From sequence record NC_028881.1: a stretch of DNA of 64,000 nt. One strand, given 5' to 3'. This stretch comes from Escherichia phage vb_EcoM-VR5. The translations under genes and the position numbers were made by a program. The notes under the pieces were generated by a model that saw only the letters and a program-made list of their open reading frames with translations, made no database searches and was not told the origin of the DNA. Shown here piece by piece: positions 11,761-13,062 of this stretch; the stretch's first letter is position 1, and each line of letters begins with the position of its first letter.

Positions 11761-13062
11761 ATGACACAAACTACAGGTGAAAAAGAAGGTGTATTTTACG
11801 GTTATTCTCTTTATGATTTGAATAAAGAAAAACTAATAACTTTTGACGAATTACTTACAGGTATTAAAGGAGAGCCTGGAGAAAATGGCGATATCGGGCC
11901 ACAAGGAAACCAAGGTCCTGTAGGCCCCCAGGGTATTCAAGGGGATACAGGTCTTCAAGGAGTTCCAGGAGAAAATGGTGCTATTGGACCAAAAGGTATT
12001 CAAGGTGAAACAGGTGCTCAAGGTATTCAGGGACCACAAGGACTACAAGGAGACCCGGGAACGCAGGGTCCACAGGGTATTCAAGGTCTAAAAGGAGATA
12101 AAGGCGACCAAGGTATTCAAGGTGAAACAGGTGCTCAAGGTATTCAGGGTATTCAAGGAGTTCCAGGTGCCAAAGGAGATATAGGCCCAGTCGGTCCTGC
12201 AGGTTTAACATGGAAAGGTTCTTGGAATATTGCAACTGCTTACGCAGTTAACGAAGCCGTTGGCCACGATGGAAGCCTATATTTCGCCACAGCTGAAAGC
12301 ACCGGGCAAACTCCTTCATTAGGTAGCGATTACTGGGAAGTCTTAGCAACGGAAGGACCTGAAGGTCGGCAGGGCGTAGAAGGCGCGCAGGGTCCACAGG
12401 GTATTCAAGGTCCACAAGGTATTCAAGGACCTAAAGGTGATACGGGTGAAACTGGACTACAAGGTCTTAAAGGTGACAAAGGAGAGACAGGTTTAACCGG
12501 ACCCCAAGGACTACAAGGTATTCGTGGCGAACAAGGAGAAACGGGCGCACCGGGTATTCAAGGTATTCAGGGTATTGCTGGAGACCAAGGTCCTAAAGGT
12601 GACACGGGCGACAAAGGTGATACAGGTGCCACTGGTCCAGCCTACGAGTATAAAAAAGTATCTAGATTTACAATGCCTGCCGCCGGTATATCAAATTCTA
12701 CTCCTTTATTCGATTCAGGATTAACAATAAGTATGTTAGGCGTCAAAGCTAATACATTTAGATTTACCCTTACTAATACAGGTTCAGCGTCTAGAGTTAT
12801 TGATGGTGAAATAATTTATTTTGACCCGGACGGTACAGCAAAAAGATTTGTTGTTCATTTTTCAATAGCTGCTGGTGAGACAACCAATTTCGGTACGTAC
12901 ACGTATGCAATTACAACTCCCAGAGTTTTTACTTTAAATTTTAATGCTACTGGGACTACACAACACGCCCACGAAGTAAAATATTTTATAATAGGACGCG
13001 ACGGTTATACGGAAAATACTTCTGTTGGTGCTACTGTTACTATTGAAAAACTCTATAACTAA
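11761..13062 (+). CDS. Collagen-like repeat protein (two G-X-Y blocks, central Trp/Tyr-rich insert, C-terminal globular domain)
   Basis: 433 aa with roughly 38 and 32 uninterrupted Gly-X-Y triplets directly visible in the translation; GGGGA ribosome-binding site before the ATG. Confidence 0.8.
11860..12646 (+). repeat. Nucleotide-level tandem repetition encoding the G-X-Y triplets
   Basis: Recurrent ggtattcaaggt / caaggt units throughout both collagen-like blocks. Confidence 0.7.

Follow-up and report, generated by a model that had tools for sequence, protein, structure and literature searches.

A collagen-like fibre gene adjoining a second Hoc gene in the head-gene locus of Escherichia phage vb_EcoM-VR5: a candidate capsid fibre

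The fibre gene and its locus

We analysed a stretch of 64,000 nucleotides (nt) from Escherichia phage vb_EcoM-VR5 (NC_028881.1), below called the window, which contains a gene for a collagen-like protein of 433 amino acids (aa), below called the fibre gene, and directly behind it a gene for a second Hoc-like protein (Hoc2). The fibre gene is located two genes from the canonical hoc, with Hoc2 in between and on the strand opposite to that of hoc (Table 1). Hoc2 starts 9 nt past the stop codon of the fibre gene and its start is preceded by AAGGA. The protein matched phrog_1149 (E = 1.8e-57) and the Hoc protein of T4 (5vf3_Z; E = 3.9e-29), and its capsid-binding domain is conserved, with the VQESRNGY sequence present. 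The gene order of T4 at this position is 24 - rnlB - 24.2 - 24.3 - hoc - inh, without a fibre gene, in agreement with a preliminary description of the window, made from the letters alone, which stated that T4 has only 24.2 and 24.3 here, between rnlB and hoc. The pairing with a second Hoc gene, the most informative feature of the locus, was absent from that description. Hoc2 also raises the question how two Hocs share the capsomer-centre sites.

The fibre gene has been present in GenBank since 2010. A close relative of the window is Escherichia phage vB_EcoM_VR7 (96% nucleotide identity across the locus), in which the orthologue VR7ORF196w is annotated as 'collagen triple helix repeat domain protein' or 'tail fiber protein', and the copy in phage ESCO10 is annotated as 'host specificity protein'. 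The match to phrog_5073 is full-length (E = 1.5e-111; fibre residues 1-424 on profile positions 59-512 of 519), and the 'tail fiber' label of this group is annotation only. No experimental work on the gene was found in the literature searched. The preliminary description had considered that the gene might be a conserved and already characterised component of related phages; it is conserved in them, but it is catalogued and not characterised. In the VR7 record (NC_014792, ~4500-4620, equivalent to ~12950 in the window) one extra T in a T-run causes a frameshift, which truncates the C-terminal domain of ORF196w and leaves a 127-nt 'gap' before ORF197w. The extra T represents either an error in the sequencing or a genuine mutation that inactivates the gene.

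From the N- to the C-terminus, the fibre consists of 33 aa, 39 Gly-X-Y triplets, an insert of 48 aa, 32 triplets and an all-beta domain of 139 aa. Both runs are uninterrupted, and the Pfam Collagen model (PF01391) matched the protein with 123 bits (E = 4.1e-36), above the gathering threshold (cutoff 27.2). The preliminary description had reported two long uninterrupted runs of about 38 and 32 triplets at a distance of roughly 50 residues; the runs and the second count are exact, the first run has 39 triplets and not 38, and the distance is 48 residues (aa 151-198). Runs of this length cannot have originated by chance, and no further run of at least six triplets was found in any frame of the window. 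Gln predominates in the Y position, and Ile, Pro, Asp and Glu predominate in the X position, a composition also seen in other collagens of bacteria and phages. The G+C content over the runs is around 0.5 and higher than that of the surroundings, because of the GGN codons. On basis of the repeat length and of bacterial and phage precedents, a trimeric triple helix is predicted; the shaft lengths in Table 1 were computed at 0.286 nm per residue. Every difference in length between the window, VR7 and ESCO10 consists of an in-frame block within the collagen runs. A Pfam scan found no signal peptide or enzymatic domain in the fibre, and hmmscan reported none of the domains PfN (PF08400), Pf2 (PF03406) and PfC (PF06820), in the whole fibre or in its parts.

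Table 1. Features of the fibre locus (positions in the window)
Feature	Position	Strand	Size	Remarks
gp24-like vertex protein genes, tandem	7688..8968 and 8969..10249	+	426 aa each
DUF2774 (PF11242) protein gene	11398..11622	-	74 aa	gp24.3 family, E = 4e-30
AATAAATA box	11731..11738	+		22 nt before the fibre ATG; one mismatch from the T4 late-promoter consensus TATAAATA; weak evidence
Shine-Dalgarno-like GGGGGA	11752..11757	+
Collagen-like fibre gene	11761..13062	+	433 aa	ATG start; orthologue VR7ORF196w; phrog_5073
N-terminal anchor	11761..11859	+	aa 1-33	type A; identity and hhalign comparisons
Collagen run 1	11860..12210	+	aa 34-150	39 Gly-X-Y triplets; ~33 nm as triple helix
CBM5/12-like knob	12211..12354	+	aa 151-198	48 residues; family-level match to PF02839
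Collagen run 2	12355..12642	+	aa 199-294	32 triplets; ~27 nm
C-terminal beta-sandwich tip	12643..13059	+	aa 295-433	rare, exchangeable; AlphaFold2 (AF2) model, fold matches, shuffling among phages
Second Hoc-like gene (Hoc2)	13072..13890	+	272 aa	two immunoglobulin-like (Ig) domains and a Hoc capsid-binding domain with ESRNG
G+C-rich hairpin	13891..13910	.		AAAGGGCC-TTGC-GGCCCTTT; between convergent Hoc2 and hoc
Canonical hoc	13915..15018	-	367 aa	phrog_1149, E = 2e-115
N-terminus of inh, matched by the Inh-like helix	15579..15716	-

The fibre-Hoc2 cassette in T4-like phages

Comparison of T4-like genomes at the junction, as proposed in the preliminary description, revealed that in all genomes examined that have the fibre gene (13/13) the next gene on the same strand encodes a Hoc-like protein; the genomes had been chosen by similarity to the fibre and not by adjacency to a Hoc gene. 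The cassette occurs in Gaprivervirus (VR7, VR25/26 and the window, a VR7 relative), Dhakavirus (ESCO10, JS10 and CLB_P2), Kanagawavirus (Kosakonia 305, with the partner as sole Hoc gene in the locus), Roskildevirus (Cronus), Gelderlandvirus (CGG4-1) and the Aeromonas phages AS4 and GomatiRiver_11, where the fibre and Hoc-like genes overlap by 4 nt. The same 4-nt overlap is found in Aeromonas phage 65 (Emmerichvirinae), whose partner gene is named 'hoc-2, second copy' and whose pair adjoins tk and not gp24. This different neighbourhood indicates that the fibre and Hoc-like genes travel together. Phage S16 lacks the cassette though it belongs to the same genus as CGG4-1, which implies that the cassette is accessory. 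In PspYZU05 (Jiangsuvirus) there is a remnant (L074 3501-4165), made up of a 49-aa open reading frame (ORF) that corresponds to the type-B anchor alone (see below) and a following Hoc-like gene of 132 aa, and this may be a snapshot of cassette decay.

The nucleotide similarity between the window and VR26 extends over 24.3, the anchor and the first shaft (11429 to ~12218), is absent over what remains of the fibre gene and over the Ig region of Hoc2, and is back from 13643, the start of the capsid-binding domain of Hoc2, on through hoc and inh. The presumed particle-proximal parts, the anchor and the capsid-binding domain of Hoc2, have thus been kept with the backbone, and the presumed distal parts, the fibre tip and the Ig domains of Hoc2, have been replaced as a block. 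This mosaic pattern fits two surface-displayed proteins with diversifying outward parts.

Fibre genes among the head genes of other phage groups

Genes of the fibre type were found among head genes in three unrelated groups, the T4-likes, the Vequintavirinae and Rogue1. In the T4-likes the position is the hoc/inh/gp24 locus. In the Vequintavirinae (CR3, A7_1, POP15 and SSBI34) a gene with the same full architecture and an anchor that is 56-58% identical lies between the major capsid and neck genes; CR3 gp011 (Certrevirus), for instance, has, like the fibre of the window, a type-A anchor, collagen, a CBM5/12-like knob, collagen and a beta tip. In the siphovirus Rogue1 the homologue has a different, DUF1737-like N-terminus, and its gene is flanked by the protease/scaffold region and the gene of the major head protein; this is the slot of SPP1 gene 12. 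None of the positions examined is a tail-fibre cluster.

SPP1 gp12 is a collagen-like trimer that binds the surface of the expanded capsid as a non-essential decoration and melts reversibly. Its gene belongs to the head module and has, like the fibre gene in Rogue1, the scaffold gene on one side and that of the major capsid protein on the other. Unlike the fibre, it measures 64 aa, has 8 triplets and lacks both knob and tip. As a homologue it was rejected, as BLASTP aligned Gly-X-Y segments only and gave no anchor similarity, and by analogy SPP1 gp12 may be viewed as a functional analogue of the fibre, not a homologue.

In contrast to the T4-likes, the phiTE/CR3-type phages have no Hoc-like partner that we could find in their loci, and no Hoc capsid-binding domain was found in the CR3 and A7_1 loci. 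Comparison of the CR3 and A7_1 neighbours with the window yielded no partner protein common to the T4-like and Vequintavirinae loci apart from an Inh-like helix. More precisely, the gene that immediately follows that of the Vequintavirinae major capsid protein (CR3 gp007, L007 988-1602; L072 822-1406) encodes a C-terminal helix that resembles the N-terminus of T4-type Inh and matched that of the window inh (tblastn E = 8.5e-5; phrog_1051 E = 6e-6), which means that the two head loci share more than the fibre. A further protein of the CR3 locus, gp008 (L007 1663-4944; phiTE_215/CB7_10 family), measures ~1100 aa and contains many short collagen runs, separated by a different module of ~50 aa (L..LP....GD.Y.I....W.G..W...G). 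CB7_10, a related collagen-domain protein whose gene lies beside the major capsid gene, was reported to be abundant in virions by mass spectrometry (MS; 112 kDa, 39 peptides).

The product of the fibre gene is, in our estimation, very probably a virion fibre. That it would not be a virion component at all, and either have its action in the lysate or on the cell, or represent a decaying accessory gene, we consider most improbable. The difference between S16 and CGG4-1, the degenerate cassette of PspYZU05 and the frameshift near the 3' end of the gene in the VR7 record could be read in this way, but the ORF of the window is intact, the repeat polymorphism is strictly in-frame, the Pfam scan gave neither a signal peptide nor an enzymatic domain, the fibre architecture is conserved over distant lineages, and the context is one of structural genes, with related proteins that have been detected in virions.

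The N-terminal anchor

Two types of anchor can be discerned in the T4-likes, type A of 33-42 aa and type B of 75-86 aa, the latter only found in Straboviridae. The two are homologous over the first ~30 residues (hhalign 95% probability, P = 2e-8). The type-A anchor of the window is 100% identical in VR26 and ESCO10 and 56-61% identical to those of Kosakonia 305, A7_1 and CR3 gp011 (58% for the latter). No solved structure was found for either type.

A related module occurs in the Vequintavirinae outside the fibre. The gene that adjoins the Vequintavirinae fibre gene, CR3 gp010, encodes a mini-collagen protein of 103 aa that begins with an anchor-related module. In phiTE and CB7 the gp010 slot is taken by phiTE_217, whose 32 N-terminal residues are 78-84% identical to the gp010 type and are followed by a globular body; indeed, phiTE_217 (L080 10376-10870) and CR3 gp010 (L007 5637-5948) combine a near-identical N-terminus of 32 aa with unrelated bodies. 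Both genes lie just after the major capsid gene, and both proteins have the ~32-aa N-terminal module in common with the fibre at profile level, although phiTE_217 carries its globular body in place of collagen and its assignment to the capsid is putative. When all collagen residues were excluded, the type-A profile aligned to the N-terminus of the phiTE_217/CR3 gp010 type with 86% probability (hhalign, P = 5e-6) over 32 gapless columns. A column-shuffle control gave z = 5.5, with 2/100000 shuffles reaching the observed score; pairwise BLAST between the anchor and this N-terminus was not significant.

The cryo-EM study of phiTE described an unmodelled, hexamer-centred density, named 'Pagoda', that is asymmetric at the interface with the capsid. 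The authors assigned it to pTE217, because this is the fifth most abundant virion protein, and the CB7 homologue of phiTE_217 was identified by MS as a 17-kDa virion protein. The sequences of the gp010 type suggest that phages of the CR3 type have collagen-like trimers in the Pagoda slot. Judged by these profile comparisons, phiTE_217 is the sole, and an indirect, link of the window anchor to a specific location on the virion.

The strict adjacency of the fibre and Hoc2 genes, with a start/stop overlap in the Aeromonas phages, could also mean that the fibre docks on Hoc2 as a capsid-bound adaptor and not on the shell, which would make the pair a two-component decoration. In 8/8 phages the split into anchors A and B coincides with that between the types of Hoc2 Ig region, and in the Hoc literature it has been suggested that the capsid-binding domain is used to display other ligands. 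The concordance of the types, however, effectively amounts to one phylogenetic split, and the window and VR26 have anchors that are 100% identical but Hoc2 Ig regions with 34% identity, the opposite of what a co-evolving interface would give. Moreover, the Vequintavirinae have type-A anchors without a Hoc capsid-binding domain in the locus, and a trimer does not match the stoichiometry of the monomeric Hoc. We consider docking on Hoc2 quite improbable.

Head fibre or tail fibre

The labels in the databases, 'tail fibre' for phrog_5073 and for most PHROGs that contain collagen, point to an accessory tail, baseplate or neck fibre that aids host recognition from the tail end, but they represent propagated annotation and not experiments. 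Actinophage minor tail proteins commonly contain collagen motifs, and the collagen-Pf2-collagen proteins of Shiga toxin (Stx) prophages are presumed to serve as side tail fibres. These EPclB-type proteins (Col-Pf2-Col, three-bead) resemble the fibre in having two shafts, a small mid globule and terminal domains, and in a length that varies by multiples of three residues. They differ from it in their PfN/PfC ends and internal Pf2 module (PF03406), and neither PfN (PF08400) nor Pf2 was detected in the fibre by hmmscan. The Vequintavirinae fibre locus also borders neck genes, the phiTE paper places an annotated fibre candidate in the baseplate fibre network, and the type-A anchor is common to two myovirus groups with unrelated capsid proteins. 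On the other side, the fibre gene never lay in the tail-fibre clusters examined, and in 13/13 T4-likes it forms a cassette with a capsid-binding Hoc paralogue, in the window within the gp24-hoc-inh head locus. In addition, the genes for scaffold and major capsid protein flank the Rogue1 homologue, and a putative capsid decoration has a module related to the anchor. Weighing these points, we consider a fibre of the tail end unlikely; judged from gene context and homology, the 'tail fibre' label in the databases is probably wrong and the protein a head fibre instead.

The knob and the tip

The insert between the shafts was compared with small carbohydrate-binding modules (CBMs) of the CBM5/12 type, which it had been said to resemble. 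The knob of this copy remained below the cutoff for PF02839 (17.3 versus 26.2 bits; E = 0.0048; profile positions 2-43 of 44), but matches were obtained for 23/25 diverse knob modules (E <= 0.1; best 5.9e-7). Furthermore, the only matches in the PDB of a profile made from knob modules were CBM5/12 chitin-binding domains, with an end-to-end alignment to that of Bacillus circulans ChiA1 (1ed7, E = 2.3e-4). The knob and the CBM5/12 domains have in common a core, W..(T)xY..(D)xVxYxGxxY...P....W, of ~45 residues, and the conserved W and Y residues of the knob map to the core of the CBM5/12 fold. On these profile matches the likeness is real at the level of the family; it does not extend to a full Pfam match of this copy, nor to the tryptophan position of ChiA1 that would matter for binding. 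The alignment shows a 3-residue deletion in the phage knob profile opposite 'GWE' of 1ed7, and the exposed aromatic residue was not found in it; the deleted position is that of W687 of ChiA1, which we take to be the exposed tryptophan needed for chitin binding. Unlike the domain of ChiA1, the phage knob is embedded between the collagen helices of a predicted trimer, and it may be as much a structural joint as a sugar-binding site.

A scan of viral contigs recovered the knob module flanked by collagen at 60 loci, with a consensus that includes Y..(D/N)DAVGY.GASYF......P.....WALLA.QG. The proteins at these loci have N- and C-termini of many kinds and some contain several knobs. By its sequence the insert is thus a member of a widespread phage 'collagen-knob-collagen' module.

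The C-terminal domain is beta-rich, as had been anticipated: the AF2 model, made with an alignment of five sequences, has 10 strands at a predicted confidence (pLDDT) of 62, and the model from the single sequence (pLDDT 53) was too poor to use. The jelly-roll C1q/TNF fold of BclA-type heads was not found in the tip. Only 6 relatives of the tip were recovered when 1.84 billion representatives were scanned exhaustively with HMMER, and a word-indexed search found one (P0001); the domain is truly rare. Among the relatives, P0002 consists of a Rogue1-type DUF1737-like N-terminus, two collagen runs with a knob between them, and a window-type tip (53% identity), and P0006 of a type-A anchor, one collagen run without a knob and a window-type tip. 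A second tip type is found in VR26, JS10, Kosakonia 305 and the unrelated Vequintavirus A7_1, and the tips of the unrelated coliphages VR26 and A7_1 are 58% identical. Tip types thus shuffle independently of the anchors, and their exchange between unrelated phages is what one would expect if the tip is a binding domain. A further relative, P0004, is an RHS-repeat protein of 1446 aa with four units of ~150 aa (GW...IYWFDANG...NFATYTYQV) that match the tip (E = 1.5e-5), which hints that the tip fold is perhaps also a repeated module in bacterial RHS toxins.

Neighbouring genes and transcription signals

The gene of the DUF2774 protein diverges from the fibre gene over an intergenic region of 138 nt. 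The AATAAATA box in this region is conserved in VR7 and ESCO10. An exact TATAAATA was not found upstream of the fibre gene, and this consensus itself is enriched in the window (14 found versus 6.8 expected). The box weakly suggests late expression of the fibre gene. The hairpin behind Hoc2 is the probable terminator for both transcription units.

The gp24-like genes of the window are also doubled in VR7, JS10, S16 and CGG4-1 and single in T4. The idea that the duplication is the partner of the fibre, which would place the fibre at the vertex, was rejected, since duplication and cassette do not correlate: in GomatiRiver_11 the cassette goes with a single gp24, and S16 lacks the cassette in spite of its two gp24 genes.

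A candidate capsid fibre

The explanation that we favour is that of a trimeric collagen-like virion fibre with a length of ~60-70 nm. It would consist of a short N-terminal anchor, two triple-helical shafts that are joined by a knob with a CBM5/12 fold, and an exchangeable beta-sandwich tip, and it would be co-transcribed late with the short Hoc paralogue. The anchor would bind a conserved feature of the capsid, for example the capsomer centre, as SPP1 gp12 does and as has been put forward for the Pagoda protein of phiTE, and the fibre may act beside Hoc and Hoc2 as a long-reach, non-essential adhesin for glycans or proteins of the host surface or the environment (e.g. mucosal). For a trimeric fibre or adhesin that is attached to the surface of the capsid we estimate a probability of roughly 0.5. 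This reading is suggested by the domain architecture, the cassette, the head-gene context, the homology of the anchor, the mosaicism, the exchange of tips and the presence of CB7_10 in virions. The proposal of the preliminary description, a capsid or virion fibre or an adhesin, is consistent with all findings, as far as gene context and remote homology can tell.

Several points weigh against attachment to the capsid or against parts of this scheme. The 13 T4-like genomes with the cassette are not phylogenetically independent. The similarity of the anchor to phiTE_217 spans only ~30 residues, the profile of the type-B anchor gave no direct match to the phiTE type, and the identification of Pagoda with phiTE_217 is itself putative, being based on MS abundance with no model built. 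The major capsid proteins of the T4-likes and the Vequintavirinae have no BLAST similarity and yet the same type-A anchor goes with both, which makes a specific contact with the capsid awkward, and in the T4-likes the centre of the hexamer is already the site of Hoc. Virion proteomics or electron microscopy for the VR7, JS98/JS10, Rogue1 and Gaprivervirus groups was not found in the literature searched. For the adhesin part, the absence from the knob of the position of the chitin-binding tryptophan of ChiA1 means that the likeness in fold does not establish sugar binding, and the model of the tip, with its moderate pLDDT, matched generic beta-sandwiches only. As to late transcription, the window contains 7 copies of AATAAATA against 8.5 expected, thus no enrichment, which leaves a weak late-promoter box. 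Apart from these points, the papers on whole-virion cryo-EM of phi92 and Bas63 make no mention of a collagen fibre.

A wider and more tentative proposal is that at least eight T4-like genera and the Vequintavirinae carry collagen head fibres of ~60 nm, with a capsomer-centre tag of ~30 residues in common with Pagoda, which together with a short Hoc would form a swappable two-protein display cassette; as a whole we hold it to be doubtful.

Relation to known systems and significance

Collagen-like phage fibres, the capsid decoration of SPP1 by gp12, the head fibres of phi29 and second Hoc genes are already known. The Hoc of T4 and the second Hoc paralogues (Muldoon, PG7 and hoc-2 of Aeromonas phage 65) share the locus with the cassette, and Hoc2 has the Hoc capsid-binding domain with ESRNG. 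A non-essential, outward-facing adhesin role is proposed for Hoc and for the fibre alike. Unlike Hoc, which is built from Ig and capsid-binding domains, the fibre has neither, and as a predicted trimer it would be ~3-4x longer than Hoc with its 18 nm. The paper on Hoc mentions second Hocs but no collagen partner. Both the fibre-Hoc2 cassette and the head-locus pattern over three groups appear to be undescribed in the literature searched, and the same holds for the anchor family that includes the Pagoda protein of phiTE and for the assignment of the knob between the collagen runs to the CBM5/12 type.

Among phage capsid proteins, Hoc is the textbook case of adherence to mucus and surfaces, and it is a major platform for phage display. 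If many T4-like phages carry such longer collagen fibres on their heads, with exchangeable tips and a short portable anchor, models of how these phages find their host in the gut would need a second adhesin with a longer reach beyond Hoc, and predictions of host range would be misled by labels like 'tail fiber' and 'host specificity protein' (phrog_5073). The anchor of ~30 residues would be usable as a compact tag for trimeric cargo on capsids, and the unmodelled densities of the Pagoda type in Vequintavirinae capsids would represent one anchor family. The fibre would then belong to a layer of adhesion by the capsid that comes on top of Hoc and had so far gone unrecognised.

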